Positions 1 to 42,887 of a stretch of DNA of 64,000 nt are shown here, piece by piece (position 1 is the first letter of the stretch; every line of letters starts with the position of its first letter). A program made the translations under genes and the position numbers. A model generated the notes under the pieces. It did no database searches. It was not told the DNA's origin and was given only the letters and a program-made list of their open reading frames with translations. The stretch lies in the NCBI GenBank assembly GCA_018303425.1, contig JAGVYF010000001.1, positions 3,539-67,538 of the forward strand, in the 5' to 3' direction. Source of the DNA: Candidatus Woesearchaeota archaeon (GTDB lineage Archaea; Nanobdellota; Nanobdellia; Woesearchaeales; JAGVYF01).

Positions 1-967
1 TGAAGAAGTAATCACAAACCCTCTTAGAAAATTAAATGAAAATCTTGAATCTTTGCCATTTCCTGATACTGAATTATTTGATTATCAAAAATATATTAAT
101 GCCAATAGAGGACTTGCAACTTTTATTTCTACAAGGGGCTGTCCTTATCAATGTACTTATTGTATAAACAAAACTTTAATCGGGAAATATGCAGGCTTAG
201 GCAAATTTATTAGATACAAATCAATTGATTATTTATTTGAAGAGATTAAAGGAGTTATCAAGAAATACAATGTTAAAGAAATTGAATTCTATGATGACAC
301 TTTCACACTGGATATTAAAAGAGTAAGAGAATTTTGCGAACGATATCCTAAAGAAATTAAACTTCCTTTTTACTTAAACGTCAGAGTGAATTCAGTGACT
401 GAAGAGATGTTTAAACTACTAAAAAAAGCTGGATGTACAAGAGTAAACATAGGTGTAGAGGCAGGAGACAAATACATAAGAAACGAAATATTAAAACGCA
501 ATATGACCGATGAACAGATTATTCAAACATTCAAGTGGGCAAGAGTTGCAGGTCTTGAAACTTATGCATTCAACATGATTGGTCTTCCTTATGAAACTAA
601 AGAAAGTATACAAAAAACAATTGAATTAAACATGAAGATTCAACCAGACAGAGTTGGTGCATCAATATTCAATGCTTATAAAGGGACAGAACTTTATAAA
701 ATTTGTAAAGAGAACGGCTGGTTAAAAGAAGAAATAACTAAAGATTCATATTTCCAATCAAGTAATGTTAATCACCCTAACTTTACAATTAAAGAATTAA
801 AATTTATTCGTGACACATTTGGCGCGCAAGTATATAGAAAAGAAAGAAAGTTAAGAGCAACATTGGATATCATAGATAAAACTTTAAGTAAGTATCCCTT
901 TTTTTATCAGATAAGATCATTTTTATTTAGAATTAATGTTGTGAGAAGATTGGTGAAAAGCTTATGA
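1..967 (+). CDS. B12-binding radical SAM protein, C-terminal part (gene begins upstream of window)
   Basis: Reading frame open to window edge (no stop from nt 2). Radical SAM cluster TRGCPYQCTYC. 4-nt ATGA overlap with next gene. Confidence 0.75.
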   Translation, partial: EEVITNPLRKLNENLESLPFPDTELFDYQKYINANRGLATFISTRGCPYQCTYCINKTLIGKYAGLGKFIRYKSIDYLFEEIKGVIKKYNVKEIEFYDDTFTLDIKRVREFCERYPKEIKLPFYLNVRVNSVTEEMFKLLKKAGCTRVNIGVEAGDKYIRNEILKRNMTDEQIIQTFKWARVAGLETYAFNMIGLPYETKESIQKTIELNMKIQPDRVGASIFNAYKGTELYKICKENGWLKEEITKDSYFQSSNVNHPNFTIKELKFIRDTFGAQVYRKERKLRATLDIIDKTLSKYPFFYQIRSFLFRINVVRRLVKSL

Positions 968-1851
968 TTTCGATATTAATAACATCATACAAAGAATCGA
1001 GAACAATTGGGAAAGCAATTGAAGCATTTAACAACCAAAAAATTAAAGAAAATTATGAAATTCTTGTTGCTTCTCCGGATTTTGAAACCGGGACCGTTGT
1101 GATGAAATATGCTTCGATGTTTCCAAATATAAGATGGATTCAAGACAAAAGGAAGGGTAAACCCGCAGCAATTAATTTGCTTTTAAAAGAAGCAAAGGGA
1201 GATATTTTATTTTTAAGCGACGGAGACGTATATGTAAGTGATAATTCAGTAAATGATTTATTAGAACATTTTAAAGATCCAAAGGTTGGAATTGTTTCAG
1301 GCAGGCCGGTATCATTATCTCCTAAAAATACGATGCTGGGATATTGGTCGCATTTATTAACTAATGAAGCAGCACATGCTACTAGAATTGAAAGGACTCA
1401 GAAAGGTGAATTTATAGTTTGTTCAGGATATTTATTTGCAATAAGAAAAAAATTTCAATACATCCCAGAAGATTTGCTCAGTGAAGATGCAATAATGTCT
1501 CATTTGATGTGGCAAAAAGGATATAAAACAAATTATGAACCCAAAGCAGAGGTATATGTAAAATATCCTACAAACTTTAAAGATTGGATAATACAAAAAA
1601 AAAGAAGTGCTGGCGGATATCAACAAATAAGCAAATACTTTAAAAACCCCCCTATAATGAGAAGTTTTAGCAAAGAAATAATTAATGGTTGGTATAAACC
1701 CTTAAAATATGCAAGCAATACTAAAGAATTTATTTGGTCCTTAGCATTATATCCCGCAAGATTATATCTTTGGCTAAAAATATTCATGGATATAAATAAT
1801 AAACATTTTAATTTGCTGGACATATGGAAGCCTGTAGAGAGCACAAAATGA
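964..1851 (+). CDS. glycosyltransferase family 2
   Basis: N-terminal ISILITSYKE...IGKAIE...LSDGDVY. GT-A fold DxD-type pattern. 295 aa. Confidence 0.7.
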   Translation: MISILITSYKESRTIGKAIEAFNNQKIKENYEILVASPDFETGTVVMKYASMFPNIRWIQDKRKGKPAAINLLLKEAKGDILFLSDGDVYVSDNSVNDLLEHFKDPKVGIVSGRPVSLSPKNTMLGYWSHLLTNEAAHATRIERTQKGEFIVCSGYLFAIRKKFQYIPEDLLSEDAIMSHLMWQKGYKTNYEPKAEVYVKYPTNFKDWIIQKKRSAGGYQQISKYFKNPPIMRSFSKEIINGWYKPLKYASNTKEFIWSLALYPARLYLWLKIFMDINNKHFNLLDIWKPVESTK

Positions 1852-3389
1852 TTGATAAAATAAAAAAATGGATTAAGAACCCGTATAATGCAATACTCAT
1901 AGCCTTATTAATAATAACAATATTTTTTAGATTAAGATATTTATTTCAAGAGAGTATTTGGGTAGATGAAACGGCTTATTATTTATTAGCTAAATATATA
2001 AAAGAAACTTTTTCATTTGGGCCATTTAGTCCATTTACAGAATTAAGATTGACTTCTGATATTGTAATTGTGTTTTGGAGTTTCTTTTTTAATTTGTTTA
2101 CTGCGGGCAGAATGATGGCTTTGACATTTGCAGTATTAGGAATTATTTTTTCTTATCTGATAGGGAAAGAAATTAAAAATGAAATTTTAGGTTTACTTGC
2201 GGCAACTTTAGTTGCGTTTAATCCTTATTTATGGTTTCATTCAAGTAGAACATTAATTGATTCGCCATTAACCACGATGTTTATTATATGCGCTTATTTT
2301 TTAATAAAATTAGAAAATAAATTTTCACTTAAAAATTTAGTTTATTTAATAATTGCATTAGTTTTTACAATTCAAACCAAGTATGTAGGAGTATTATTTA
2401 TATTTATAATTTTAATTTATTATTTATTAAAATTTCTTCTTGTTATACAAAATAAAAAACAAACGCTAACAAATTTATTTAAATCTAAAATAAGTTTGCT
2501 GTATTTAATTTTTTTACTGCCATTATATGCTGTAAAAAAGATTATTTTTGAGGGAATTGGTTCATTGCAATATGATCCATTTTTTATAGAACAAATTCCA
2601 ATTATGCTGTCTGAACCTATAATGTGGTTAGCCGTATTTGGTTTAATCATATCATTATTTTACAAAAAAAAATCTTATTTAATTATTGCTTCATGGACGC
2701 TATTAATTTATGCGGCATTTTCATTACATCCCGCAAACCATGATCCCAGATATATTCTTCCGGGAATTCCAGGGATTATATTATTGGCTTTAATAGGATT
2801 ATTTGAAATTGGAGACCTGATTCAAAGATATACTAATTTTGATAAAAAAATCTTCCAAATGATTTTAACAATTTTATTAATATTTATAACAATCCCAATA
2901 CATTATGAAACTGCAAATTCCATGAATTTGAGATCGTTTTATGCATTTACGGGGTATGATGAAGCGGGAAAATGGATTCAAGATAATGTTGAAGATGGTT
3001 CAACAGTGTTTGTAATGTCAACATCCTGGGCAAATTTTTTTTCAAACAATCTTTATAACCGGATTAGTATTGATAACTCTGCTAAATTAAAGGTCCCGGA
3101 GGATCTGATTTCTGAATTAAATAATTATAAAGATAGGCCTTTTTATTTAATCATTGACAATTGGGAAGCAGGAGCACAACCAAAATGGTTAACACCTACA
3201 GAAGAAAATATTAACAATATTATAAGTATGGGATTTGAATTAAAAAATGTGATAACAAAAAAATACCCTCTCGATAATCAACAATTTACAGAGATATATA
3301 ACAAAATTGGGCTATTTACAATAAACATTGATGATAGAAATTTACAAGAAATACCCGCAATTTTCATTTTTAAAAAACTTAGGGGATAA
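1848..3389 (+). CDS. GT-C fold polytopic membrane glycosyltransferase (PMT/ArnT family 39/83-like)
   Basis: About 11 predicted TM helices. First-loop WVDETAYY (DE motif of PMT/ArnT-type enzymes). C-terminal soluble domain. ATG at 1848 preferred over ORF-track start. Confidence 0.55.
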   Translation: MIDKIKKWIKNPYNAILIALLIITIFFRLRYLFQESIWVDETAYYLLAKYIKETFSFGPFSPFTELRLTSDIVIVFWSFFFNLFTAGRMMALTFAVLGIIFSYLIGKEIKNEILGLLAATLVAFNPYLWFHSSRTLIDSPLTTMFIICAYFLIKLENKFSLKNLVYLIIALVFTIQTKYVGVLFIFIILIYYLLKFLLVIQNKKQTLTNLFKSKISLLYLIFLLPLYAVKKIIFEGIGSLQYDPFFIEQIPIMLSEPIMWLAVFGLIISLFYKKKSYLIIASWTLLIYAAFSLHPANHDPRYILPGIPGIILLALIGLFEIGDLIQRYTNFDKKIFQMILTILLIFITIPIHYETANSMNLRSFYAFTGYDEAGKWIQDNVEDGSTVFVMSTSWANFFSNNLYNRISIDNSAKLKVPEDLISELNNYKDRPFYLIIDNWEAGAQPKWLTPTEENINNIISMGFELKNVITKKYPLDNQQFTEIYNKIGLFTINIDDRNLQEIPAIFIFKKLRG

Positions 3390-3393
3390 ATCA

Positions 3394-4269
3394 ATGAAAG
3401 TTATTATTTCAATTCCGGCCTATAATGAAGAAAAAACTATTGATAAAGTAGTCCTAGAAATAAATGAAGTAATGTGTAGTACGAATTATAAATATGAAAT
3501 AATAGTTATTGATGATGGATCCAAAGATAAAACTGTTGAAATTGCAAAAAATGCGGGAGCAAAAGTTTATTCAAACAAAATTAATCTTGGGCTTGCAGAA
3601 ACTTTTAAGCATGAGATTCAACGGTGTAAAGAACATAAAGCAGATATAATTGTGCATACTGATGCAGATGGTCAGTATCCGGCAATATTCATTCCGCAAC
3701 TCATCAAAAAGATAGAAGAAGGTTATGATTTAGTTTTGGGAAGCCGGTTCGGCAGGGGGAAGTATAGCGGTTCTATGACTAAAAGTATGGGCAATATTGC
3801 ATTTGCTAAATTATTTTCCCGATTATTAAACGCTAAATTGACAGATACAACAACTGGATTTAGGGCATTTACAAATAGGGTTGCAGAACTGCCTTTGATT
3901 AATACTTTTACATATACCCAAGAACAGCTTATTCGGGCAGGCAAGGCAAAGATGAGGATTGGAGAAATCTCAATTAAAACAAGAAAAACTCGGCCTAGTC
4001 GATTATTTAGTGGACCTTTAAACTATGCGCTAAAAGCATGGATAAACATATTTCGAATATATAGAGATTTTGAACCGTTAAAATTTTTTGGTATTATAGG
4101 GTTAACTTTATTTACTCCGGGTTTTTTGATTGGGCTCTATTTTATTTTATTGCACTTTACAGTGGGTATAAGCGGCCATACGGGTTTATTATTTCTAATG
4201 TTAATACTTTTGTCAACCGGATTACAGATTATGTTATTTGGATTTTTGGCAGATATGTCTAGAAAATGA
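3394..4269 (+). CDS. polyprenyl-phosphate sugar synthase-type GT2 (DPM1/GtrB/ArnC-like)
   Basis: VIISIPAYNEE...DDGSKDKT...HTDADGQY plus two C-terminal TM helices. AGGGGA RBS 8 nt upstream of ATG 3394. Confidence 0.75.
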   Translation: MKVIISIPAYNEEKTIDKVVLEINEVMCSTNYKYEIIVIDDGSKDKTVEIAKNAGAKVYSNKINLGLAETFKHEIQRCKEHKADIIVHTDADGQYPAIFIPQLIKKIEEGYDLVLGSRFGRGKYSGSMTKSMGNIAFAKLFSRLLNAKLTDTTTGFRAFTNRVAELPLINTFTYTQEQLIRAGKAKMRIGEISIKTRKTRPSRLFSGPLNYALKAWINIFRIYRDFEPLKFFGIIGLTLFTPGFLIGLYFILLHFTVGISGHTGLLFLMLILLSTGLQIMLFGFLADMSRK

Positions 4270-5174
4270 AAATTAAAAAAACATTGCTTAAGATATTAGT
4301 CAGCTTATTATTTTTAGGGATTATTCTTTTAAAAATTGATGTCAATAAAACTATTAACACTTTAACATCTATTAAACCAGAGATAATTATTTTGTTTCCA
4401 CTAATTATAATTATAGGTTTTCTTTTAAATTCATTTAATATTTATATATTATTTAAAGGAATTAACCTCAGAATTAATTATATTTATGTGTTCAAGAGTT
4501 ATATTTCGGCGTGGCTTTTCGGGAAAGTATCAACTGGCAAAAGCGGAGAACTTTCAATATTATACTTTTTATCAAAAAAAGAAAAATATATTCCCTTTAA
4601 TAAATCAGCAGCAGTAATCTTTATTGATAAAATTATCAGTTTTTTAGTGCTTTTATTTATATCTTTTTTTGCAAGTTTAATCTTATTTCGTGAAAGGCTC
4701 TATCTAATTTTAATAATATATTCGGCAATATTTATAATTGTTATTGCTGTTTTATTTTCATATAAGGCAATCTCCAGAATTATAAATTTTTTTTTTAAAA
4801 GACAAAACTATTTAGCGGGATTTACTAAAAATATCAAATATCTATTAAAAAATAGTAAAAAAAATATTTTAGTTAATATAATATTCACGTTCATTAAACA
4901 TATTAATGTTTCTTTTGCAATTTTCATTATTTTTTGGGCATATGGGTTTCAAATTCCATTCATAATGGTTTTTTTAATATCCGGCATTGAAGGGATTATA
5001 AGCCAGGTACCAATTGCCTTCATGGGGCTGGGTGTGACAGAAGGGGCAGCCGTTATTTTATATAGTTTAATTAATACTCCTTTACAAATTACAATATCTG
5101 TATATATCTTCCTAAGAATTTATAGTTATTTTTTTGCTTTTGTATTATATTGTTTAAAACAAATTATATCTTAA
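4266..5174 (+). CDS. flippase-like / LPG-synthase-TM family membrane protein (GT2 partner)
   Basis: Eight hydrophobic segments. Start overlaps stop of the Pren-P GT2 (ATGA). This gene pair is a widely conserved arrangement. Confidence 0.45.
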   Translation: MKIKKTLLKILVSLLFLGIILLKIDVNKTINTLTSIKPEIIILFPLIIIIGFLLNSFNIYILFKGINLRINYIYVFKSYISAWLFGKVSTGKSGELSILYFLSKKEKYIPFNKSAAVIFIDKIISFLVLLFISFFASLILFRERLYLILIIYSAIFIIVIAVLFSYKAISRIINFFFKRQNYLAGFTKNIKYLLKNSKKNILVNIIFTFIKHINVSFAIFIIFWAYGFQIPFIMVFLISGIEGIISQVPIAFMGLGVTEGAAVILYSLINTPLQITISVYIFLRIYSYFFAFVLYCLKQIIS

Positions 5175-6580
5175 TTTCCGAGATAAGATAATCCTTTAAT
5201 TAAATATCTTTTAAACATATTAAAATCACGAATCTTAAAAAATTGCCTTAAAATATAATTTGGCCTGATATAAAATTCTTTGTATGCTTGTTTTTGAATT
5301 GTTTTTAAATATTCTTTCGTTAAACCATGCGGCAAATAAACCGGTTCATTGCTATGGCTTGACATATTTTCATAGGCATTTGGATCAAAAGTCCCATATT
5401 GGGCGCAGATATTATAAAATTCAGTATTTGATAACGGCATAACTAAACTAAATTGCACGCCATCAAGTTTTAAAGACTTTGCAAAATTAATTGTATCATT
5501 AATTGTTTCTTTTGTTTCAGTAGGATTTCCAATCATAAAGTAACCTTTAGTAAATATTCCCGATTTATTTACCTGATTAATAACTTCATTTACTTGTTTG
5601 AAATTAATTCCTTTTCTTAAAAAAGTTAAAATGTCTTTATTTCCGCTTTCTATTCCAAAACTAATGTACCAACAACCTGCTTTTTTTATTAAATTGATTA
5701 ACTCCATATTTTGATAAATCACATCTATTCTTCCATGGCAAGACCAAGTTAAATCAATGTCTTTTTCTAGAATCAGATTACAAAAAGTTTTGATTTTTTG
5801 TGGGTCTAATAAAAAAGTATCATCGACGAATTGAATTTCTTTTATACCATATTCTTTCTGTAAATGTTCTATTTCATTAATAATATATTCGGCAGAATGT
5901 CCCCTATATTTCCTTCCGAACACATGTTCGCAAAAAAGACAAGCGTATGGGCATCCCCTTGTTGTTATCATTGTTGTCATTGGCAATCTCATATATCGAA
6001 AACTAGATTTATATACCGAATTGGTTATGTCTAAAAGATGTCTTGCCGGGAAAGGGAGGTTATCTAATTCATCTAATAACGGCCTATCTTTATTTTCTAT
6101 AATCTTCCCTTCTTTTCTAAAAATAATTCCGGATATTTCGGCATATTTCCCTTCATTTTCCATCTCAAAAATTAATTCTATTATAGTATTTTCACTCTCT
6201 CCTTTTACAATAAAATCAATATTAGAGTTCATCTCCATTAGTTTTGTTTTAAGTAAGGATGCATGCGGTCCGCCTAGAATAATTTTAATATTTTTATTTG
6301 CTTCCTTAATGATATCAATACATTTTAAAATCTGTTTATGCATTAAAGTAATTGTAGTTATTCCCACCACTAGGGGATTTTCATTTTTTATATAATTTTC
6401 AAGTTCTTCTTCAAAAATATTTTGCGCTTGACCATCAAAAATAACTACGTTGTGATTTTTTTGTTCTAAAACTGCCGCAATATACATTAAACCGAGCGGG
6501 GGATAGGTCGCACTTTGTTCGTCCCATCTTAAATTTTTATTAAATAAAGGGGGGTTAATCAATAATATTTTCATAACCAA
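5171..6580 (-). CDS. B12-binding radical SAM enzyme
   Basis: N-terminal Rossmann-like B12-binding region (MKILLINPP...VVIFDGQ). TRGCPYACLFCEH CxxxCxxC. 469 aa. Confidence 0.8.
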   Translation of the reverse strand: MVMKILLINPPLFNKNLRWDEQSATYPPLGLMYIAAVLEQKNHNVVIFDGQAQNIFEEELENYIKNENPLVVGITTITLMHKQILKCIDIIKEANKNIKIILGGPHASLLKTKLMEMNSNIDFIVKGESENTIIELIFEMENEGKYAEISGIIFRKEGKIIENKDRPLLDELDNLPFPARHLLDITNSVYKSSFRYMRLPMTTMITTRGCPYACLFCEHVFGRKYRGHSAEYIINEIEHLQKEYGIKEIQFVDDTFLLDPQKIKTFCNLILEKDIDLTWSCHGRIDVIYQNMELINLIKKAGCWYISFGIESGNKDILTFLRKGINFKQVNEVINQVNKSGIFTKGYFMIGNPTETKETINDTINFAKSLKLDGVQFSLVMPLSNTEFYNICAQYGTFDPNAYENMSSHSNEPVYLPHGLTKEYLKTIQKQAYKEFYIRPNYILRQFFKIRDFNMFKRYLIKGLSYLGN

Positions 6581-6614
6581 AAATAATAAACTCTTACTTA
6601 TAAAGTTTTATATG

Positions 6615-7418
6615 TTATATAAAATATCTTAAGTTTACAGGGTTTGAACCATTTTTAACAATAAGATATGCATAAGAACTAGAAAAACCAAATCGCATAC
6701 ATAATTTTCTTAACTTATTAAAACCAAATCTATAAGAAGATGATAAAGTTAAATTACGGATCTGTATCACCTTAAACCCCTCTTTTTTAAAAAGATCAAT
6801 CCAATATTTTTGACCAAAATTAATAAATTCAGAAAAATGGTTATAATTTTCGCCGTGTATTGGCGGGAAAATTTTATTAACCCATAATTTATTTTTACTT
6901 TTAATATTGTCTCTAGTGCTATTTTCTTTTAATTTAGAAAATGCGACTTTTCGTCTTTCTTTATTTGATAACATATAGGCGATATACGGATAATATAAAA
7001 CAAAATTTAACAATTTCCAATAACGATTTGGCATAGTATGTATCATTATACCATCGGATTTTAAAACGTTATATAGCCCTTTGAGACATTTTTCTTTATT
7101 TTTAATATGTTCTAAAAGATTGGAAGAAAAAATAAAATCAAAAGAGTCTTTTTCAAAATTTAAATCTTCTGCGTCACAAATTATCAATTTTAAATTTTCT
7201 TGATCAGAGAGTTTTATATTCAACCTTTCTGCATTATATTCAGTGCATATTATAGAATGACAATATTTCAATAAAATTTTAGATTGAAATCCATCTCCTG
7301 CTCCGATTTCCAATGCATTTTTAAAAATATTAGAATCCGCTTTTTTAAAAATAATTTCTAAATCTTTTTTGCGGAGGTTATCTCGGGCACTTTTCCAATA
7401 TGTTATATAATCATACAT
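6615..7418 (-). CDS. class I SAM-dependent methyltransferase
   Basis: Motif I LEIGAGDGFQS. Acidic motif II. 267 aa. Confidence 0.7.
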   Translation of the reverse strand: MYDYITYWKSARDNLRKKDLEIIFKKADSNIFKNALEIGAGDGFQSKILLKYCHSIICTEYNAERLNIKLSDQENLKLIICDAEDLNFEKDSFDFIFSSNLLEHIKNKEKCLKGLYNVLKSDGIMIHTMPNRYWKLLNFVLYYPYIAYMLSNKERRKVAFSKLKENSTRDNIKSKNKLWVNKIFPPIHGENYNHFSEFINFGQKYWIDLFKKEGFKVIQIRNLTLSSSYRFGFNKLRKLCMRFGFSSSYAYLIVKNGSNPVNLRYFI

Positions 7419-7456
7419 AACATTAAAAAAAAAGAATAATATTTAAATATTTGGAT

Positions 7457-8641
7457 TTAAGGCAATTTAAATGATTCATAAATTTGGAGGTAAGATTTAG
7501 CCATTAAATTGGCATTAAAATTATTCTGAACGTGCCTTAATCCAGTTTTACCCATTCTTCTTGCAATCTTTGGATTAGAAAATAAATAAACAATTGCTTC
7601 AGCAATCTCTTTTGAACTTTTTGGTTTAACTAATATTCCAGTTTTAGGAGTAATTGTTTCAGGAATTCCTCCGACATCACTTCCGATTACAGGGGTTTGC
7701 GCAGCCATTGCTTCTAATTGCACCTGGCCTAAAGCTTCCATTACAGAAGGAATACAAAACACATTAGCTTTTCTATATATTTCACTAATTTTGTCTGGAT
7801 GTATGTAATCATAAAATTGAACATTTTTTCTTAAACATTTGCTTAATATAAATTTTTTAACTTTTGCTTTAAAAAAAAGGTTAGATTTACCAATAAATAT
7901 AAATTTAGCATCCGGAAATTTGTTTACCACATAAGGCATAGCGTTTACCAAATACCATACGCCTTTTCGTTCCATATTTTTACCTACATAGAGTACTGCA
8001 TGATTCAAATATTTAGAATCAGGGATCTTTAAATTAAAATCTTTGATTTTTATTCCTTTATGTATTACTTTAATCTTGGATTTAGAAATGTTGCAGGTTT
8101 TAGATATGATTTTTGCAGTATGATAACTATTTGCAATAATTAAATTTGCTTTTTTTAAAAAATATTTGTCTAAAATTTTAACTAATTGATAATGAGTGTA
8201 TCTTAATAAAATATCAGTAGAAATATAGGGAAATTTAAAAATATTCCATGACGATTCTAACGCATATGTATCATTCACTGAAACAATTTTGGGAATTTTA
8301 ATTCTGGAGTTTAAAAAAAAACTATCAAATTTATCCATCACATGCAAAATATCAAAATTAGATAAATCGGTCTTTTTAAAAAAAGATCTTAATTTCCAGG
8401 ATAGTAAAAGCCTAATATCCATTGGTAAAAATTTCTCAATAAATTTAGATTTAAAAATGTTTAAACGGTAAATCTCAAGATTGCCTTTTTTTTCATATTT
8501 TGAACCACCCATCATCAGCAAAGTAATAACTGTTACATCATGTCCCCTAGAAACCAGATACTCTACTACGTGTGTTGCAGTTCTACCTGGACCAGAACTA
8601 ATATAAGGGGGGTACTCGTGAGTCACAATGCAAATTTTCAT
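7457..8641 (-). CDS. glycosyltransferase family 4
   Basis: MKICIVTHEYPP start. GT-B C-terminal EALGQVQLEAMAAQTPVIGSDVGGIPE. ORF-track N-terminal extension rejected. TTTATAAATA TATA box about 25 nt upstream of ATG 8641. Confidence 0.75.
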   Translation of the reverse strand: MKICIVTHEYPPYISSGPGRTATHVVEYLVSRGHDVTVITLLMMGGSKYEKKGNLEIYRLNIFKSKFIEKFLPMDIRLLLSWKLRSFFKKTDLSNFDILHVMDKFDSFFLNSRIKIPKIVSVNDTYALESSWNIFKFPYISTDILLRYTHYQLVKILDKYFLKKANLIIANSYHTAKIISKTCNISKSKIKVIHKGIKIKDFNLKIPDSKYLNHAVLYVGKNMERKGVWYLVNAMPYVVNKFPDAKFIFIGKSNLFFKAKVKKFILSKCLRKNVQFYDYIHPDKISEIYRKANVFCIPSVMEALGQVQLEAMAAQTPVIGSDVGGIPETITPKTGILVKPKSSKEIAEAIVYLFSNPKIARRMGKTGLRHVQNNFNANLMAKSYLQIYESFKLP

Positions 8642-8695
8642 AAGGGTATAAAATCTGCAAATATTTATAAACCTAACCTTTTTATCAAATACAAA

Positions 8696-9373: not shown

Positions 9374-9396
9374 TATTCCACTCATGAAAAAATAAA

Positions 9397-17552: not shown

Positions 17553-17575
17553 AAATGAAACAGGAAAAACTTCCC

Positions 17576-34948: not shown

Positions 34949-34966
34949 TATGCAGAGAATCTCCAT

Positions 34967-35002: not shown

Positions 35003-36106
35003 ATGAAAATTCTAGAAACACCGGCATATTTTCTGCCGCACATTGGGGGTATTGAATCAGTCGTATATAGTTTAAGTAAGGAGTGGATTAAACTTAAGCA
35101 TAAAGTTAAAATTATTACATCATCAATAGGTTCAGATAAAACCAAAGAAATTATGGAAGATATAAAAGTAGGAAGAATCAAATCATTTACATTTATTCAG
35201 GACGCAATTGCACCTCTTTTACCATTTTCATTGCATTCCGCAGATATTGCCCATATTCATCATCCGCATCCTTATTGGATGTTTGTATGCGCATCATACT
35301 TCAGAATTAAAAAAGTCCCTTATGTTGTGCACATGCACGGCAAAGAGATTGTTTACACCGGTTGGAAAAAATGGATTGCTATATTTTATAATTACTTTTT
35401 TCTTGATTTTATTCTTAGAAGATCTGAAAAAATTATTAGCCATACAATCAAAGTAATACCGCAATCTCAATATCTTCGGAAATATAAAAATAAAATTGTC
35501 TGCATACCTCATGGAACTGATTTAATGCATTTTAAAAAAATTAAAAGAAGCAATTTCATATTTAGTGTAGGAATTCGTGATTATAAAAGGCTCGATATTT
35601 TAATTAGATCTATGCCGTTAATTCTTAAAAAGGTAAAAACTCGGCTTGTAATAGCGGGGAAAGGGAAAGAAAAGGATAAACTTGAAAAGCTTATTGAAAA
35701 ATTAGGTTTACAGGAAGAAGTAATATTTTTAGGTTATATAACTGAAGGACAGAAATATGGATTATATCAAAAAGCGGGAGTGTTTATTCTTCCTTCACCC
35801 ACAATAATGGAAAGTTTTGGCACTGTTGCATTTGAAGCATTATCAATGAAATGTCCAACAATTGTAACTTCTGGCGCAGGAATTTCAGAGATATTTGAAA
35901 AAGAAAAAATCGGAATTATTGTGCAGCCATACAAAATTACTGAACTTGCAGAACAAATTGTTAAATTACTTAAAAATAAAAAACTCGCAAATGAAATCGG
36001 AGAAAAAGGTTACAAGGTTATAGAAAAAAAATATCAATGGAAACATATTGCTAAAAAATATATTGAAATTTTTGAAGAGGTAATTAAAAATGCACGCGCC
36101 AATTAG
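35003..36106 (+). CDS. glycosyltransferase family 4
   Basis: MKILETPAYFLPHIGGIE...ESFGTVAFEALSMKCPTIVTSGAGISE. Confidence 0.7.
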   Translation: MKILETPAYFLPHIGGIESVVYSLSKEWIKLKHKVKIITSSIGSDKTKEIMEDIKVGRIKSFTFIQDAIAPLLPFSLHSADIAHIHHPHPYWMFVCASYFRIKKVPYVVHMHGKEIVYTGWKKWIAIFYNYFFLDFILRRSEKIISHTIKVIPQSQYLRKYKNKIVCIPHGTDLMHFKKIKRSNFIFSVGIRDYKRLDILIRSMPLILKKVKTRLVIAGKGKEKDKLEKLIEKLGLQEEVIFLGYITEGQKYGLYQKAGVFILPSPTIMESFGTVAFEALSMKCPTIVTSGAGISEIFEKEKIGIIVQPYKITELAEQIVKLLKNKKLANEIGEKGYKVIEKKYQWKHIAKKYIEIFEEVIKNARAN

Positions 36107-36554
36107 GAGATATCATCAAAATATTTTGAAAGTTTTAAGAAACAAACTGTTGCATTTGATTGCAAGAAATACAATAAGTAATAGATTAAGGATATTTTTA
36201 TTTAGATTATCGGGAGCAAAAATCGCAAAGAGTTCATTTATAGGGATAGAAACATTTCTTGATGATCAATTTCCGCAATATATTAAAATTGGGAAAGGAT
36301 GTGTGCTCTCATTCAGAGTAAACTTAGTTGTGCATGATATGTCAGGTTACTTGAAACCGATAACATTTAAAAGAAACAGTTATGCCGGTTGCGCATCTAC
36401 AATTTTACCGGGCGTAATTGTCGGAGAAAACTCGTTTATTGCGGCAGGTTCAGTAGTAACAAAAGATGTGCCACCGAATACAATAGTTGCAGGCGTGCCT
36501 GCTAGAGTGATTAAACAAACTGAACCGAGGCATAATGTTAAAGTATTTAAATAA
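36090..36554 (+). CDS. hexapeptide-repeat (LbH) sugar acetyltransferase
   Basis: [38 protein letters not shown] hexapeptide repeats. 154 aa. Confidence 0.7.
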
Positions 36555-37665
36555 GACTAAAATGTTAATCCCTCATCAAAAATTGAATATACGGACAAAA
36601 GATATTCTCAAGGGCAGTGTTAACTATCTTAACAATTCAAAACTCAATCTATCATCTTTAAAAAAGTATGTGCATCATAAACATTTACATTGGGCGGGCT
36701 CAGCAAGATTTGCAATAACCCAAACACTACAAAGTATATCGCCCAAGGGAGGGTTAAGAGTTGGGTTACCTGCATTTACGTGCAAGGTTATAGCTGATTC
36801 AATTAAAAATGCCAACTGTAGTCCTGCATTTTATGATTCAAGTATAATCTCCGGTTACAAGCATATCAAAGAAATAATCTCTGATATTGATGCGCTTTTA
36901 TTGCCCCATAATATGGGCTTTGTTTCAGAGCTTGATAAAATACAAAAATTATGCCGAAAGAATAATGTTGAATTTATTGAAGATTGCGCGCAGGCATTAG
37001 GAGCAACATATAACAATCAGTTAGCTGGAAGTTTTGCTGATAGGTCTGTGTATAGCTTTAACATGAGCAAAGGTTTTTTTTTAGGGGGACTTATCGCCAG
37101 TAATTACAAACTAATAAATATAAGTTCTCATGGCAGGTTGAACGGGAAATGCTATCCTATTAAAGAAATAGCGAAAGCAACAGCGCAAGGAATAATTAGT
37201 GGACCTTTTTTTAATAAAAATATTTTTTCAGTGACAAATAAATTTCTTAAAACGGAATTACATAAAAAACATTTGGCTTTACCCTATAAAATGCCAAAAT
37301 ATGCGCAATATATAATTGCAGAACAATTAAAGAGCTATCATGAAATCTTAAAATTACGTAAGCGGAATGCCGAAATTTGTATGAGCGAGCTTGAAGGAAT
37401 TGCTGACTTTGTTAAACCTTTAAAAAATTCTTCCCCCTCATGGTTATACTTTGTACTGCTTGATAAAAATAGAGCCAAATTAAGAAAAGCATTGTTAAAA
37501 GAAAATGTAGATATAGTACCTTCATACACGTTTTATGATTTAACAAGAAAGTCTGAAATTGCAACAATGACTTCTGAGAGACAAGCTATATTTTCTTTGC
37601 ATAGGCCGACTTCAGAAATAGAATATATTGTGAAAAAAATTAAAAAGGTGAAGAGATGGATTTAA
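36535..37665 (+). CDS. divergent DegT/EryC1-like PLP-dependent enzyme (aminotransferase/dehydratase fold)
   Basis: [37 protein letters not shown] resembles the DxAxAxG...SFxxxK region of DegT family. N-terminal half is divergent. Confidence 0.45.
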
Positions 37666-38714
37666 TCGAACTTCAAACAGATGATCCGCATTGGGCCGAA
37701 TTTTTAGAAGGACATGAACACCAAGTCTTTCATAGACCTGAATATAAACAATTTATCGAAGAGACATTTCAGAATACAAAAGCGCATTATTTTGCAATCG
37801 CTGATAAAAAGATTAAAATAATTTTCCCTCTATTCTATGTAGATCAGCCATGGTTAAGAAAAATATTCTTCTCACCTTTTTTTGACATCTTCAAACCAAA
37901 ACTAACATCTGCAGCATTTCATGACTTCGGTGGACCGATTGGAGAATTAAAACCTGAATACATGATTAAATTATTTAACCATATTAAAGAAACATATTCT
38001 ATTGATAATGTAGAAATAAAAGATAATAATCCTCTTTTCAATAAATTAGTTAAAAGAAAAGATTACCGCAAATTTGTAATCTCACTAGAGAATAAAGAAC
38101 AAGTTTGGAGAAATATTCAAAAGTCTAAAAGAAAAGCTGTTAAAAAAGCACAAAGGGAAGGAATCACTACACGAGAAGTTCAAAAAAAAGAAATAAACAA
38201 ACTTTACAAAACATACTTGGAAAATATGCGGGCATTTGGCGAACTCCCATATCCAAAAAGATACTTCATTAATTTTTATGAAAACTTTATTGAGAAAGGA
38301 CTAGGTAAATGTTTTGGTGCATATTACGGAAACAAACTAGTCTCAGTTTTATTAGGATATACAGTTAAGGACAATGTACACATAGTTATAGCAGTCTCTG
38401 AAAAAAAGTACCTCGAGCTTAGGCCAAACGATGCAGTGCACTGGCAATTCATTGAATGGGCTTGCGACAATGGTTACAAATATTTTGATTTCGGTAGAAC
38501 TCGCCCCGAATCAGGACAATATGACTATAAACGTAAATGGGGTGGGAAAATAGAAGAATTAACAACAAATTATTTACCTATCAAAACAAAGAATATACCT
38601 ACTATTGATCCAACTAACCCTAAATATCAACTATTTATTAAAATAGAACAACATCTGCCTCTTTGGTTTACTAAATACATTAGTTCATGGTTCAGAGAAG
38701 GGTTAGGTATGTAA
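37656..38714 (+). CDS. FemAB-like GNAT acyltransferase (Acetyltransf_6-type)
   Basis: About 350 aa. C-terminal ...[21 protein letters not shown] typical of BioF2/FemAB-like GNATs found in polysaccharide clusters. Confidence 0.5.
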
Positions 38715-38715
38715 C

Positions 38716-39453
38716 TTAAATAATCCACTTCTTAATAAACTCATCACAACTAATCCAGTTTGCATTAGAATTCTCAACCATTGAAGTAAACATTTTCCAT
38801 GCTTTCTTACCTTGATTACGTGAATAAAGCTTTTTTACAAGCCAATTTATCTGATTATGAGGCCGCTTGGATAAAAACTCACAAGGATGCAGATAAAACA
38901 TGTATGGTAATTTAAATAATTTAGATGCCGGATAAAATAATCTATAATAAGGCAACCCAGATGATAAAAACTTACCTACAAAATTTGACATAGGCAACTC
39001 AATGATCCCATTTCTCCAATGGGGCTTAATGTTAACTAAAAGATTATTATAACGCCCCGGAAAAAATGAGCTAATAGAAGAATCATACTTATACCCATTT
39101 TCTTTGAGTGATTTATATAAAGTGTTTGGATACATAAAATAAGGCGCGCGAAATCCTTTACATTTAATTCCTAACTTCTCAATAGCTAACTTAGACTTTC
39201 GTAACTGATAATCTAAACTATTTTCATTAATGTATGAATGATCATAACCATGAGACGCAACCTCATGAGACTTAGAAATTTTCTTAACTAGTTTAGGATA
39301 CTTCTCAGCAATTTCACCAATAACAAAAAATGTTGCAGTTATATTGTTTTCCGAGAAATAATCTAACAATTTTGGAACTATAACTTTCAAACTTTTATCT
39401 TCTTTACTTTCAAAATCATACTCTAAATCAATTGTCAGAATTTTATCTATCAT
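38716..39453 (-). CDS. polysaccharide deacetylase (NodB homology domain)
   Basis: TFFVIGEIAEKYPKLVKKI...HEVASHGYDHS (NodB motifs 1 and 2). Confidence 0.75.
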   Translation of the reverse strand: MIDKILTIDLEYDFESKEDKSLKVIVPKLLDYFSENNITATFFVIGEIAEKYPKLVKKISKSHEVASHGYDHSYINENSLDYQLRKSKLAIEKLGIKCKGFRAPYFMYPNTLYKSLKENGYKYDSSISSFFPGRYNNLLVNIKPHWRNGIIELPMSNFVGKFLSSGLPYYRLFYPASKLFKLPYMFYLHPCEFLSKRPHNQINWLVKKLYSRNQGKKAWKMFTSMVENSNANWISCDEFIKKWII

Positions 39454-39779
39454 TTTAATTGTTTCAATGCAACAGATTTAACTATTTTTTTAAGTTTACA
39501 TTGCTGGACTCTTAATAATTTAAACAAATAAAAAACAATTGCAATCATAAACATAAATCCCGCGATTGTAAATAATTCAACTGCGCTTCTAACACTAAAA
39601 GCCTGAACAAAAATGTCGAGAGTTCTTGGGAATACAACTCCCAGTAAAAAGAATAGCCAAACGGGGATCCAAATTAATAGATCCGCAAATTGTATTTCTT
39701 TCCTGCGATAAAATAATAAAGTTACATATATCATCACAAGCCCAAAAATTATTCCCAAACTCTGCAGCCATATTAGCAT
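39450..39779 (-). CDS. DUF2304-like small membrane protein (GT2 partner)
   Basis: 109 aa with 3 TM helices. Overlaps and follows a GT2 gene, the arrangement typical of GT2 plus DUF2304 pairs. Confidence 0.45.
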   Translation of the reverse strand: MLIWLQSLGIIFGLVMIYVTLLFYRRKEIQFADLLIWIPVWLFFLLGVVFPRTLDIFVQAFSVRSAVELFTIAGFMFMIAIVFYLFKLLRVQQCKLKKIVKSVALKQLK

Positions 39780-39784: not shown

Positions 39785-40444
39785 TCACCCAAAAATTCTC
39801 CAATAAACCATCATGGAAAATATTTTTATTCCGTCAAAAACAGTAGTTCCCTTAACTTTATTTAAATATATTGTTTCAATTGGAATTTGACCAACTTTAA
39901 GTTTATGTTTTCTTGCTTTAGCCAGCATTTCAGTTTCAACTGAATAACCTTCTGAATTCCATTTAATTTTATTATAAATCTCGGTTTTAATCGCTCTTAA
40001 TCCATTTGAAAAATCTGCGATATTTGAATTATAAAGGAAATTAAAGCTTGAACGTAAAAACTTGTTTCCAAATCTCAATATAAATGGCATACTCTTATTA
40101 AATTTACGGACACCTGTAACCAATTGGTAATTTCCTTGATTAATTTTGTTTAATAAAGGGACAATATCTTTAGGGTCATGCTGTAAATCTGCGTCTATAA
40201 ATACAACAATGGTTGCGCCTTTTTTCAGTGCAGCTTCAAAACCTGTTGACATTGCCAATCCTTTGCCCATGTTAACGATATGTTTTAGCCTAAAATCGGC
40301 AGTTGAAGAATTTTTAAAAGTTTCATCAATACTGCCATCGTCAACAACAATTACTTCATCAACATATTTTTTTGTTTCCTTTATCACTTCTTTAATATGA
40401 AGTTCTTCATTATATGCAGGTATTACTGCAATTATTTTTTTCAT
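39785..40444 (-). CDS. glycosyltransferase family 2 (Pren-P sugar synthase-like, soluble)
   Basis: KIIAVIPAYNEE...VVDDGSIDET...FIDADLQHDP. Confidence 0.7.
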   Translation of the reverse strand: MKKIIAVIPAYNEELHIKEVIKETKKYVDEVIVVDDGSIDETFKNSSTADFRLKHIVNMGKGLAMSTGFEAALKKGATIVVFIDADLQHDPKDIVPLLNKINQGNYQLVTGVRKFNKSMPFILRFGNKFLRSSFNFLYNSNIADFSNGLRAIKTEIYNKIKWNSEGYSVETEMLAKARKHKLKVGQIPIETIYLNKVKGTTVFDGIKIFSMMVYWRIFG

Positions 40445-40446: not shown

Positions 40447-41463
40447 TTAAAAAATTCCGATTTTATAAGTAACACTATAAATTACAATCGCTGATAAACC
40501 AATTTCAAACAAAAATAAAACCCTGACTAGATCCTTTTCAAATATTTCAATGTTTAGTTTATTAAATGTGTAAATAATCAAATGTTCCAAAGCATATATT
40601 TTTTTATAAGGTTGTAATAATGAACCATTAGGCAAAAGTTTTGCAAAACTTTCTTTTTGCATCAGTCCTCTTAATTTTAAAGGAAATTGAATAAAATAGG
40701 GAATAAATAAAAATAATGCAATTTTTTCCATGTTACCTGCAATTGCAACACTTGCAATTAATGCGCCCACTGAATAGGTTAAAGTATCACCTGGAAAAAT
40801 TCTTGCGGGGTGACGATTAAACAAATAAAGCGCAATTAAACTCGAAAACATACAAAGCGCAACCACTGCAACCCATCCGGTTCTTGTAAACCACGCAATG
40901 TAACCCATTGTAAATAAAATTATTGCGCCCATTCCTGTTTCTAATCCGTTATAGCCTGCTAACATATTAAAGCCATTAGATGCGCCCACAATGCCTATAG
41001 GGATAAATAAAAAAGGGTATATATATGTTAAATCTACAATACCTAACAAAGGCAGGGAAACTTTTGAATATCCGGCATTAACAACAACCATAGGTAACGC
41101 TGCAAAAAACGTAAGCAGTGGTTTTTGCCATTGCCTTAATCCTATTTTCCAACCTAATATATCATCTATAATACCAATTATAGAAATTGTTAAAATTGTT
41201 GATAATAATGCCAATATCTGCAAATTTGTTTGGGGTGCATCAAGATAATAAGTATTAATTGCTATAAATAATAATACGCCCGCCATAAATCCAATTAAAA
41301 CTGGAACTCCTCCCATTTCAGCAACATTTTTAGGATTTAGTTTGTGCATATCAATTCCAACTAAACCTGCTTTTCTTGCTCTCCTAATCCATCCAGGGGT
41401 AACTAATAAAGTAATCAAGAAACTTACAACAAAACATAAGATTAAAAAAGATTGGACCATCAA
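40447..41463 (-). CDS. polyprenyl-phosphate N-acetylhexosamine-1-phosphate transferase (MraY/WecA/AglH family)
   Basis: About 10 TM helices. VGIDMHKLNPKNVAEMGGV matches the D-x-H/NK...PE.GG motif of the GPT family. Confidence 0.7.
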   Translation of the reverse strand: MMVQSFLILCFVVSFLITLLVTPGWIRRARKAGLVGIDMHKLNPKNVAEMGGVPVLIGFMAGVLLFIAINTYYLDAPQTNLQILALLSTILTISIIGIIDDILGWKIGLRQWQKPLLTFFAALPMVVVNAGYSKVSLPLLGIVDLTYIYPFLFIPIGIVGASNGFNMLAGYNGLETGMGAIILFTMGYIAWFTRTGWVAVVALCMFSSLIALYLFNRHPARIFPGDTLTYSVGALIASVAIAGNMEKIALFLFIPYFIQFPLKLRGLMQKESFAKLLPNGSLLQPYKKIYALEHLIIYTFNKLNIEIFEKDLVRVLFLFEIGLSAIVIYSVTYKIGIF

Positions 41464-41534
41464 ATATAGATTTATAATTGACTTTATAAATATTATAGAG
41501 TCCGAAAAACAATGTTTATCGAATATGTTCTATT

Positions 41535-42887
41535 TTATTGGATTACGCCAATACCATACCATTTAATACCTATTTGTTTGAGAGATTCCTTATACTTGTC
41601 ATAAAGATTTCTAAAATCAAAAATAACTGGTTCTGTTAATGGTTCCAATATACATTTTAATGTATCAAAATCAGAAATTCTATAATCTGACCATTCTGTA
41701 AGTATAATAAACCCGTCGCATTTGTTTAATACTTCGTATTTATTCTCATAATAACTGATTTTATCACCGAAAATTGATTTAGCATTTTCCATTGCTTCGG
41801 GGTCATGAACTTTTATCTTTGCGCCTGCATTCAATAGTTTATTTATGACTGTAATTGATGATGAATCCCTCATGTCATCAGTATTAGCTTTGAAAGCCAA
41901 ACCCCATATACCTAAAGTTTTACCTGCAACATTTCCCCTGTAATGATTAAATATTTTTTGTGCACACCATTCTTTTTGTTCTTCATTAGACTTAATCGTT
42001 CGTTCAATCTGGAGCATAGGAGAATTAAATTCTCTACCAGTTACTGCTAAAGCTTTTGTGTCTTTAGGAAAACAACTCCCGCCGTATCCAGGTCCGGGAT
42101 ACATAAATTTTGGACTTATCCTTGAATCAGTGCCCATGCCATGAGTTACTTCCCTAATATCTGCGCCAACTGCTTCAGCAAGTCTTGCAAGTTCATTTAC
42201 AAAAGCAATTTTATTTGCGAGAAACGCATTTGCCCCATACTTTATCAATTCAGCGCTCTCAATTTTCTTTGTTATAATAATTGGATTACCATTTCGCGTC
42301 ATAGGTTCATATAACTGCTGCATAATTTCTGCAGCTTTATTTCCTTCTGCGCCTATAACAACTCGGTCTGGATAAAGGAAATCTTTTACAGATGAACCTT
42401 CTCTTAAAAATTCAGGATTAGAAACAACATCGAATTCAATATTTATGCTTCTTTTTTGCAATTGTTGTTCTATGATTGCTTGAACTTTTTTACCAGTACC
42501 GACCGGCACAGTACTTTTATCTACGATTATTGAATATTCACAAATATATTTTCCAATTATTTCAGCAACTTTAAAAACATATTTTAAATCTGCTGAATCA
42601 TTGATTTCATTTGTCGGAGTGCCCACGCAAATAAAATGTATCTTTGAATTTTTAATTGCATATTCACTATCTTGTGTAAATTCAATCATTCCATTGGCAA
42701 GGGTTTCATCTAACATTTCTTTTAAACCCGGTTCATAAATTGGAGGTACCCCTTGTTTTAATTTTTCAATGCGAATTGGATCAATATCAACACATATTAC
42801 TTTATTGTTATGTTTAGCAAAACAAACACCTGCGATCAAGCCAACATAACCTGTCCCAAATATAGAAATTTTTGCCATAATAATCAC
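41535..42887 (-). CDS. UDP-glucose 6-dehydrogenase
   Basis: MAKISIFGTGYVGLIAGVCFA...VICVDID. Catalytic GGSCFPKD. 450 aa. Confidence 0.85.
   Translation of the reverse strand: MIIMAKISIFGTGYVGLIAGVCFAKHNNKVICVDIDPIRIEKLKQGVPPIYEPGLKEMLDETLANGMIEFTQDSEYAIKNSKIHFICVGTPTNEINDSADLKYVFKVAEIIGKYICEYSIIVDKSTVPVGTGKKVQAIIEQQLQKRSINIEFDVVSNPEFLREGSSVKDFLYPDRVVIGAEGNKAAEIMQQLYEPMTRNGNPIIITKKIESAELIKYGANAFLANKIAFVNELARLAEAVGADIREVTHGMGTDSRISPKFMYPGPGYGGSCFPKDTKALAVTGREFNSPMLQIERTIKSNEEQKEWCAQKIFNHYRGNVAGKTLGIWGLAFKANTDDMRDSSSITVINKLLNAGAKIKVHDPEAMENAKSIFGDKISYYENKYEVLNKCDGFIILTEWSDYRISDFDTLKCILEPLTEPVIFDFRNLYDKYKESLKQIGIKWYGIGVIQ

Follow-up and report, generated by a model that had tools for sequence, protein, structure and literature searches.

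What does a DPANN archaeon build with a locus in which six of the 37 genes code for radical S-adenosylmethionine (SAM) enzymes? This locus occupies positions 1-42887 of a 64,000-nucleotide stretch (hereafter, the window) of contig JAGVYF010000001.1, which derives from an uncultivated Woesearchaeota (DPANN) archaeon. We consider that the whole region is the larger part of a ~47-kb cell-surface glycan island, a reading to which we assign a probability of about 0.7. Glycan islands as such are ordinary. Of more use, judging from sequence comparisons, is a conserved and uncharacterised pair composed of an HpnJ-like radical SAM gene and a family 4 glycosyltransferase (GT4) gene, often accompanied by a flippase-like gene and present in both Bacteria and Archaea.

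All 37 genes of the island were annotated by Pfam and NCBIfam profile searches. They are densely packed (coding fraction ~0.98, with numerous overlapping stops and starts; the G+C content of the window is ~30%). The matches agree with a first-pass annotation, made from the DNA letters alone, which had already regarded the region as a glycan island: they include an initiating phosphotransferase, a Wzx flippase, GT4, GT2 and GT-C glycosyltransferases, GT2 proteins that resemble dolichol-phosphate (Dol-P) hexose synthases, a 3'-phosphoadenosine-5'-phosphosulfate (PAPS) synthase and sulfatase-fold proteins. The Pfam searches also place GT2, GT4 and GT-C-like genes around the B12-type radical SAM units, as that annotation had described. 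Profile matches and gene order thus point to the assembly of a glycan on a lipid carrier, to modules that would decorate it on the outer face of the membrane, and to a supply of PAPS. With respect to the set of proteins for assembly on dolichol phosphate, PF00953 (117 bits) and PF01943 are clearly matched, and the AglJ-like GT2 proteins reach 121-130 bits versus a cut-off of 325.

One decoration module can be recognised in the operon at 1-5174, whose overlapping genes code for a B12-binding radical SAM enzyme (B12_1, 1-967, +; plus and minus signs denote the strand), GT2a (964-1851, +), GT-C1 (1824-3389, +), GT2b (3328-4269, +) and a flippase-like membrane protein (4266-5174, +). GT2a, the start of which overlaps the B12_1 stop, is of the PgaC/Glyco_transf_21 type (PF00535, PF13641 and PF13506, with weak PgaC and HpnI matches). 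GT-C1 is a multi-pass membrane protein of the GT-C (PMT_2) type, with PF13231 at 27.6 bits versus a cut-off of 26.1; a PDB sequence search with this protein gave nothing useful. GT2b resembles AglJ, ArnC and dolichyl-phosphate hexose transferases (PF00535, 95 bits; TIGR04182 AglJ, 130 bits, and NF041391, 102 bits, both under their cut-offs), and the flippase-like protein matches PF03706 (94 bits) and TIGR00374 (48.4 bits versus a cut-off of 43.2). On this basis, the genes at 964-5174 make up a predicted three-component extracytoplasmic glycosylation set of the AglD/AglR/AglS, GtrB/GtrA/GtrX or ArnC/ArnEF/ArnT type. In the case of AglD/AglR/AglS, dolichol phosphate is first loaded with the sugar, which is then flipped and transferred outside (PMC3871713).

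Four of the radical SAM genes code for proteins with a B12-binding domain (PF02310, cut-off 32.1 bits) and a radical SAM domain (PF04055, 77-91 bits). Besides B12_1, they are B12_2 (5171-6580, -; PF02310 82 bits, PF04055 86 bits), B12_3 (9397-10830, -; PF02310 weak, 37.8 bits) and B12_4 (18325-19752, +; PF02310 80 bits, PF04055 88 bits). The window contains only the C-terminal 321 amino acids of B12_1 (PF04055, 90.8 bits), its N-terminus lying off the window; the full-length protein, encoded by identical metagenome contigs (L001 and L010), is composed of 477 amino acids and matches PF02310 with 58.3 bits. The four genes with a B12-binding domain listed in the first-pass annotation are therefore all genuine by profile search, three of them directly and B12_1 by means of its full-length copy. 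The motif CxxxCxxC is present in all four, as seen by pattern search in B12_2, B12_3 and B12_4 and in full-length B12_1. This Rossmann plus radical SAM architecture is that of "class B" enzymes, and cobalamin binding is predicted from the Pfam domain.

The four proteins share only 28-33% identity with each other, while their closest orthologues in other DPANN genomes show 44, 52, 81 and 69% identity, which agrees with their earlier description as divergent paralogues and not recent duplicates. Because each of them is closer to orthologues from other DPANN genomes than to the paralogues of its own genome, the paralogues are old. The gene order around them is not. This order is mosaic, with reshuffled modules in the 81%-identical relative L092, and the adjacency to methyltransferase genes described below is not enriched around B12_3 orthologues, so that the earlier idea of an ancient modular layout is not supported in the form proposed. 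Some blocks do recur: GT-C, methyltransferase and B12_4 in L092 and in L018, another Woesearchaeota genome, and GT4b, rS_a (see below) and B12_3 in L012, L013, L014 and L016.

B12_3 is the member of the HpnJ-like pair. The HpnJ model (TIGR03471) aligns along its full length with 304 bits, and gives 241 bits for B12_2, 196 for B12_4 and 143 for the partial B12_1, values that do not reach the cut-off of 577.6. The BchE model (TIGR02026) gives 188-216 bits for the three full-length genes (216 for B12_2 and 205 for B12_4; cut-off 481, not reached), and no pigment genes are present in the window. HpnJ or BchE is the best family model for all four proteins, and none of them reaches any family cut-off. 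Bona fide HpnJ proteins from Burkholderiaceae megaplasmids align with B12_3 over 97% of its length at ~30% identity. An N-terminal insertion and three motifs, FCLWPxT, FDDDTF and AAPxPGTxLY, are common to both and absent from the other three paralogues.

A genome scan with the B12_3 family provided 80 loci, 14 from DPANN archaea, 3 from Bathyarchaeia and 63 from bacteria, mainly Anaerolineae, the PVC group, Omnitrophota and Acidobacteria; the best relative of B12_3 was 59% identical. Most of the longer loci carry recognisable glycosyltransferases. Thus, among the 39 loci from bacteria that span 12 kb or more, GT4 genes are present in 33, GT2 in 31, GT-C-like in 29 and LPG_synthase_TM-like (PF03706-like) genes in 17, and among 11 DPANN loci the corresponding numbers are 8, 10, 9 and 8. 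In bacteria, a GT4 gene immediately adjoins a B12-type radical SAM gene, nearly always the B12_3 orthologue, in 42 of 65 cases; shuffled gene orders predict 17.8±3.1, and none of 2000 shuffles reached the observed count. The corresponding partner in the island is GT4b (12016-13176, -; PF13692, PF00534 and PF13439).

The bacterial members of the family are not restricted to metagenomic sequences. The pig pathogen Lawsonia intracellularis carries a glycan locus at positions 4621-19223 of its plasmid 1 (L093, NC_008012.1; 27 kb), in which a stop/start overlap links the B12_3 orthologue to the class I methyltransferase gene behind it, followed by a second radical SAM gene and four more methyltransferase genes. 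This locus, which has generic annotation only, also contains heptose-type genes (SIS, GHMP kinase, HAD-IIIA), a DUF2142 protein and, like the island, GT2 genes paired with DUF2304 genes. Plasmid pDCAR1 of Solidesulfovibrio carbinolicus carries four radical SAM genes near pseudaminic-acid-type genes. The locus tags of the two B12_3 orthologues are LI_RS06575 in Lawsonia and C3Y92_RS20575 in Solidesulfovibrio. As in the island, the B12_3 orthologue adjoins a glycosyltransferase in these bacterial polysaccharide loci, those of Lawsonia and Solidesulfovibrio as well as the metagenomic ones from Anaerolineae, PVC bacteria and Omnitrophota.

DPANN loci differ from bacterial loci in the number of radical SAM genes. 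Whereas bacterial loci usually possess one or two B12-type genes and almost none of the SPASM type, the 14 DPANN loci contain 38 B12-type and 21 other radical SAM genes among 205 open reading frames (ORFs), with up to eight per ~20 kb. For instance, the glycan genes of L014, L020, L021, L024 and L089, which come from Woesearchaeota and Aenigmatarchaeota, are accompanied within ~20 kb by 4-8 radical SAM genes, and many of the B12-type ones share only ~30-35% identity with any of the four window paralogues. The diversity of DPANN B12-type sequences points to a large unexplored radiation. The comparison of gene neighbourhoods proposed in the first-pass annotation thus shows that glycan loci with several radical SAM genes recur in DPANN genomes and that the longer related loci mostly contain glycosyltransferases. 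It also modifies the accompanying claim that so dense a decoration had not been described for archaeal agl clusters. The claim stands in that the archaeal N-glycosylation papers retrieved mention no radical SAM enzyme, and our literature search found nothing specific on such enzymes in DPANN or Woesearchaeota glycan loci or in Agl pathways; it does not stand in that loci rich in radical SAM genes are common in DPANN archaea and similar ones exist in cultured bacteria. Public records of the island genes carry generic names only, such as "radical SAM protein".

The methyltransferases that accompany the B12-type genes show another pattern. Four of them were confirmed by Pfam as class I SAM-dependent enzymes: MT1 (6615-7418, -; PF08241, 66.9 bits), MT2 (8696-9373, +; PF08241, with a weak MftM-like match), MT3 (17576-18271, -; PF13489, 59 bits) and MT4 (31612-32337, +; PF08241, 62 bits). 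A fifth class I methyltransferase, of 243 amino acids, is encoded directly upstream of B12_1, outside the window. Three pairs had been counted previously, which was right as to the adjacency and too low in number, since with the fifth methyltransferase all four B12-type genes are paired. When the order of the 40 island genes was shuffled, such complete adjacency appeared in 0.2% of the trials (P about 0.002). Two of the pairs are co-directional (MT1 and B12_2, for instance, are 34 bp apart), one is convergent (MT2 with B12_3) and one divergent (MT3 from B12_4). Around B12_3 orthologues the adjacency is not enriched, either in DPANN loci (8/38 versus 6.0±1.9 expected) or in bacteria (3/65), which rules out the methyltransferase pairing as a conserved unit of this family. 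It is enriched only for loose relatives of B12_4, namely class B radical SAM genes sampled broadly from metagenomes at 27-40% identity to it: 17 of 83 have a methyltransferase neighbour against 7.4±2.1 expected, and 0 of 2000 shuffles reach this number. In L092, the place of MT2 is occupied by a gene convergent to the B12_3 orthologue, whose product is a double nitroreductase-domain fusion that also shows a faint resemblance to methyltransferases; the island of the same relative is bordered by a gene for a 962-aa protein that combines CTP_transf_like, PPDK_N and PEP-utilising domains (these features are located at 1-546 and 11411-12778 of L092).

The two remaining radical SAM genes were absent from the first-pass annotation. 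Both rS_a (10917-12032, +; PF04055 and PF13353) and rS_b (20600-21685, -; PF04055, 97.5 bits) lack a B12 domain and possess CxxxCxxC together with C-terminal cysteine clusters of the SPASM/twitch kind. Their best NCBIfam matches are the PTO1314 and NirJ/AhbD families; with regard to a role as anaerobic sulfatase-maturating enzymes (anSME) acting on the sulfatase-fold protein, no anSME family appears in the top-25 NCBIfam lists. rS_b is the last gene of an operon in which it follows, with intergenic gaps of 4-8 bp, the genes for a dehydrogenase of the UDP-glucose/GDP-mannose family (22691-24013, -; PF03721, PF00984 and PF03720), which likely supplies uronic acid, and for an NAD-dependent sugar epimerase/dehydratase (21690-22682, -; PF01370 and PF16363). 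PDB sequence matches of rS_b include SkfB, PqqE, the cytosylglucuronate decarboxylase BlsE (2.4e-11) and viperin. Owing to this operon and to the resemblance to BlsE, the most likely substrate of rS_b is a sugar derived from a UDP-uronic acid. No radical SAM gene was found among the 17 ORFs of the ~21-kb flank that were scanned against Pfam.

The pair formed by B12_3 and its glycosyltransferase partner recalls the hopanoid clusters of Burkholderia and Mycetohabitans, in which hpnI, coding for a glycosyltransferase, hpnJ and hpnK precede a gene for a PF03706 protein (66.6 bits) of the same family as the flippase-like protein at 4266-5174. In both cases a glycosyltransferase, a Rossmann/radical SAM enzyme and a PF03706 (LPG_synthase_TM) protein are clustered, and B12_3 aligns over its full length with HpnJ and has motifs in common with it. 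However, the identity is ~30% and the score lies under the HpnJ cut-off, the partner is a GT4 and not an HpnI-type GT2, neither an HpnK deacetylase nor hopanoid genes are present, the host is an archaeon, and the cassette is located inside a large Wzx/GT-C glycan island. A strict hopanoid-like pathway can be ruled out, since HpnI-like and HpnK-like proteins are missing from the window and nearly absent from the 80 related loci (no HpnK-like protein and a single marginal HpnI match, 2.8e-05, in L026). Because the core of a glycosyltransferase and an HpnJ-like radical SAM enzyme, often with an LPG_synthase_TM protein, mirrors the order hpnI-hpnJ-hpnK-LPG_synthase_TM, the class B-type enzymes would most likely modify sugars after their attachment to the membrane lipid carrier and ahead of their movement by the flippase-like protein.

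Judging from sequence, the outcome of such a modification could be C-methylation, ring contraction or another rearrangement, or deoxygenation; the remaining probability falls to reactions of other types. That the B12-type enzymes C-methylate sugars, as the first-pass annotation proposed, is not established, since the best models, HpnJ and BchE, are non-methylating and no cut-off is reached. C-methylation by all four as cobalamin-dependent C-methyltransferases, which together with the O-/N-methylation by class I enzymes would give several C-methyl sugars, is nevertheless a serious possibility, though short of even odds. Antibiotic pathways likewise direct both kinds of enzyme, class B-type radical SAM and class I methyltransferase, at sugars (GenK and GenD1 with GenN and GenL; MoeK5, whose substrate is a lipid-linked saccharide, in moenomycin), but these pathways belong to secondary-metabolite clusters of actinomycetes and no significant family-model match is present in the island. 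Methylases make up the majority of the characterised cobalamin radical SAM enzymes (PMC13598231). Those that C-methylate sugars include GenK, GenD1, Fms7 and MoeK5, and the gentamicin pathway combines sugar C-methylases with class I N-methyltransferases (PMC9204698, PMC5819394). In the island, a methyltransferase adjoins every B12-type gene, and the enrichment among the loose relatives of B12_4 goes in the same direction; however, a class B methylase requires no separate methyltransferase and the adjacency is not enriched in the B12_3 family. The methylase models PhpK, HpnR, TsrM, KedN5 and MgmA/QCMT all score under their own cut-offs and lower than HpnJ or BchE, in top-25 NCBIfam lists that contained no dedicated GenK, Fom3 or MoeK5 models. 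Similarity networks place HpnJ beside the methylases Fom3 and MoeK5 (PMC9204698), which favours methylation to some extent and makes an HpnJ-like sequence compatible with methylation as well as with rearrangement.

Rearrangement would apply above all to B12_3, possibly also to its paralogues: a lipid-linked hexose or hexosamine would be rearranged, for instance by contraction of the pyranose ring to a carbocyclic cyclitol, giving an acid-stable head group or glycan unit. HpnJ, for which the contraction of the pyranose ring of lipid-linked glucosamine has been proposed, belongs to a small group of cobalamin radical SAM enzymes that do not methylate (PMC13598231, PMC13459092). All known members of this group form or rearrange rings (PMC13598231), and calditol synthase is an archaeal precedent for the ring contraction of a lipid-linked sugar (PMC13459092). 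The full-length match of B12_3 to HpnJ, its best one, the insertion and motifs that it shares with HpnJ and that the other three paralogues lack, and the common glycosyltransferase/radical SAM/LPG_synthase_TM logic argue for this reaction. It is still rather doubtful, given that the identity is low, that the score is half of the equivalog cut-off, that the HpnI-like and HpnK-like partners are missing and that the HpnJ reaction itself has never been reconstituted in vitro (PMC13459092). Fold comparisons fit both reactions and a third. The AlphaFold (AF2) model of B12_3 (pLDDT 86.9) matches MgmA/QCMT, TsrM, OxsB, TokK and CysS, with the highest TM-score (0.75-0.79) for AprD4; this supports a class B fold and does not separate a methylase from a rearrangement enzyme or an AprD4-type dehydratase. 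AprD4 and ArsL have a similar domain and bind no cobalamin (PMC12931638). Cobalamin-independent radical diol dehydratases that deoxygenate sugars could likewise be present among the proteins with Rossmann and radical SAM domains: the substrate of AprD4 is a sugar, AprD4 (6fd2) is the top PDB sequence match of two paralogues, and PF02310 is weak in B12_3. On the other hand, PF02310 is strong in B12_2 and B12_4, the AprD4 family model gives ~80-100 bits versus a cut-off of 500 and ranks below HpnJ or BchE, and no AprD3-like partner reductase stands out, so that deoxygenation seems improbable.

Several observations weigh against the interpretation of the region as a cell-surface glycan island with cobalamin-dependent sugar tailoring. 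AglB was not found in the window, where the sole STT3 signal is a weak one (E 0.0017) in GT-C1, a protein better matched by PMT_2; the final acceptor could thus be a protein, a polymer or a lipid. Matches to the specific families HpnJ, BchE and AglJ all lie under curated cut-offs. Cobalamin binding is predicted only from a Pfam domain that is weak in B12_3, and the highest TM-score corresponds to AprD4, which is cobalamin-independent. In addition, DPANN archaea are not generally known to make cobalamin or their own lipids, which puts in question both the cobalamin supply and the identity of the lipid carrier. The locus might instead serve to modify the membrane-lipid core, or its product might be a cofactor or a soluble natural product, for instance an aminoglycoside. 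Pathways to lipids, cofactors and antibiotics do include class B radical SAM enzymes (PMC12931638, PMC13459092), and the HpnJ-like cassette has its hopanoid counterpart. We consider such a non-glycan role very unlikely, because Wzx, the initiating phosphotransferase, three GT-C-like transferases and the Dol-P-hexose-like GT2 proteins indicate lipid-carrier-linked assembly outside the cytoplasm, the window has no lipid-core, cofactor or aminocyclitol genes, and, of the 80 related loci, the longer ones mostly contain recognisable glycosyltransferases.

The interpretation as a surface glycan island is also consistent with the similarities to the Agl clusters of Haloferax volcanii and Halobacterium salinarum. 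The island shares with them GT2 proteins like the Dol-P-sugar synthases AglJ and AglD, a flippase, the AglS-like logic of outer-face transfer, a UDP-glucose dehydrogenase (AglM), a SAM-dependent methyltransferase (AglP) and, as candidates in the island, sulfatase-fold sulfotransferases (PMC3871713, PMC11980604). Unlike them, the island lacks AglB in the window and has six radical SAM enzymes, a class for which the archaeal N-glycosylation literature retrieved shows no member in the characterised Agl pathways.

The pathway that we propose for the island would begin with the supply of nucleotide sugars by two dehydrogenases, the one of the rS_b operon and a second member of the UDP-glucose/GDP-mannose family (41535-42887, -; PF03721, PF00984 and PF03720), by the short-chain dehydrogenase/reductase (SDR) type epimerase/dehydratase, and by two aminotransferases of the DegT family. 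The first of the latter is of the DegT/DnrJ/EryC1 type (14773-15885, +; PF01041, 419 bits) and the second is encoded at 36535-37665 (+; PF01041, 86 bits). A hexapeptide-repeat acyltransferase (36090-36554, +; PF00132), a FemAB/GNAT-like acyl or aminoacyl transferase (37656-38714, +; PF13480 and PF02388) and a polysaccharide deacetylase (38716-39453, -; PF01522) may contribute to the same step.

A lipid-linked oligosaccharide would then be built by the initiating sugar-1-phosphate transferase of the AglH/WecA/MraY family (40447-41463, -; PF00953, 117 bits), by four GT4 enzymes, and by the GT2d enzyme (39785-40444, -; PF00535), whose gene is paired with that for a DUF2304 small membrane protein (39450-39779, -; PF10066). 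The GT4 enzymes are, besides GT4b, GT4a (7457-8641, -; 394 aa; PF00534, 116 bits, and PF13439), GT4c (33800-34966, -; PF00534) and GT4d (35003-36106, +; PF00534, 134 bits). A Wzx-type oligosaccharide flippase (24158-25582, +; PF01943 and PF13440) would take part in this assembly.

Decoration on the outer face would depend on two AglJ/Dol-P-hexose-transferase-like GT2 proteins, GT2b and GT2c (19786-20598, +; PF00535; TIGR04182, 121 bits, under cut-off), on the PF03706/TIGR00374 flippase-like protein and on three GT-C-like membrane proteins. Besides GT-C1, these are GT-C2 (15882-17552, -; PF13231, 22.5 bits, under cut-off), which shares an operon with MT3 and has a counterpart in L092 that matches PMT_2, and a putative GT-C-like glycopolymer transferase (13233-14648, -) with no Pfam match and with 61.5 bits, under cut-off, for the NCBIfam LA_3751/LA_3752 putative glycosyltransferase family. 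The tailoring of the sugars would be carried out by the six radical SAM enzymes and the five class I methyltransferases, the latter probably adding conventional O-, N- or carboxyl-methyl groups in the manner of AglP.

Sulfation would be fed by the PAPS synthase fusion (25571-28312, -; PF00224, PF14306, PF01747 and PF01583), next to which three proteins of the sulfatase/alkaline-phosphatase fold are encoded as candidate sulfotransferases. In Halobacterium salinarum, the N-glycan sulfotransferases belong to the alkaline-phosphatase/sulfatase superfamily (PMC11980604). The first of the three (28305-29708, -; PF01663, 144 bits) is a candidate glycan sulfo- or phospho-transferase and is 24% identical to the second (30068-31615, +; PF01663, 87 bits); a PDB sequence search with an alkaline-phosphatase-fold protein gave marginal ENPP3 matches only. 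The third (32329-33816, -; PF00884 and PF16347) has PDB matches to S1 sulfatases and LtaS. The PAPS synthase fusion, of 913 amino acids, is composed of a pyruvate-kinase barrel, PUA_2, ATP sulfurylase and adenosine-5'-phosphosulfate (APS) kinase. Many proteins of ~720-750 amino acids cover its residues 3-738 (kinase barrel and sulfurylase), and an exhaustive search of 1.84 billion representatives found all three parts in only three of them (904-930 aa). As a speculation, the kinase domain could regenerate ATP from phosphoenolpyruvate for the synthesis of PAPS.

The limits of the island were located with the help of identical metagenome contigs. Its left boundary lies ~4.4 kb before position 1 of the window, and this extension contains, apart from the 243-aa methyltransferase, one GT4 and one GT2 gene. 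Further to the left (L010 1-5276, L011 1-5547), a VTC/DUF4956 pair and two beta-helix proteins of ~930 amino acids are encoded; the latter are candidate surface proteins and possible targets of glycosylation. The right end is the second dehydrogenase gene, directly followed by an isolated 5S rRNA gene (42975-43090, -; 64.9 bits). tRNA and Rfam scans of the window detected nothing besides this 5S rRNA gene, which is unaccompanied by 16S or 23S genes in the window. After it come the housekeeping genes for the alpha and beta subunits of phenylalanyl-tRNA synthetase, archease and a phosphoribosyltransferase. Some ~2 kb at 46840-48868 contain a single ORF of more than 100 amino acids (47868-48266, 132 aa), compared with ~98% coding in the island, and no Rfam match at gathering thresholds. 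Putative surface proteins are encoded outside the island at 48869-51903 and 60809-62095; in order, they show Ig-like/FixG_C and NPCBM_assoc-type domains, no Pfam match (558 aa), and FG-GAP/beta-propeller repeats.

The archaeal origin given for the sequence was confirmed by exact protein matches in Candidatus Woesearchaeota archaeon (MBS3112467, MBS3112480, MBS3112508 and MBS3112509), encoded on an 80.7-kb contig. More than 20 metagenome contigs carry genes for proteins identical to B12_3 and GT2a; among them is an ANAN16 scaffold, which we take to come from the Rifle aquifer.

With ~47 kb and six radical SAM enzymes placed in one glycan island, an organism of reduced genome makes a heavy investment in unusual sugar tailoring, and four of these enzymes probably need scavenged cobalamin. 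Tentatively, and without counting it as probable, we suggest that the cassette of a GT4 and an HpnJ-like radical SAM enzyme, often with a flippase-like protein, a GT2 for Dol-P- or undecaprenyl-phosphate-linked sugars and a GT-C, is a widespread route to radical-derived sugars on lipid-linked glycans in Bacteria and Archaea, which has radiated into many paralogues per locus in DPANN archaea. These sugars could be carbocyclic, C-branched or C-methylated. The presence of the family in the cultivable bacteria Lawsonia intracellularis and Solidesulfovibrio carbinolicus makes its reaction experimentally accessible, and this reaction bears on that of HpnJ, whose mechanism is unsolved. DPANN archaea live in attachment to host cells, a contact probably mediated by their surface glycans. 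If the suggested route is real, the surface glycans of DPANN archaea, that is, their interface with the host cell, would carry sugar chemistries new to archaeal glycans.

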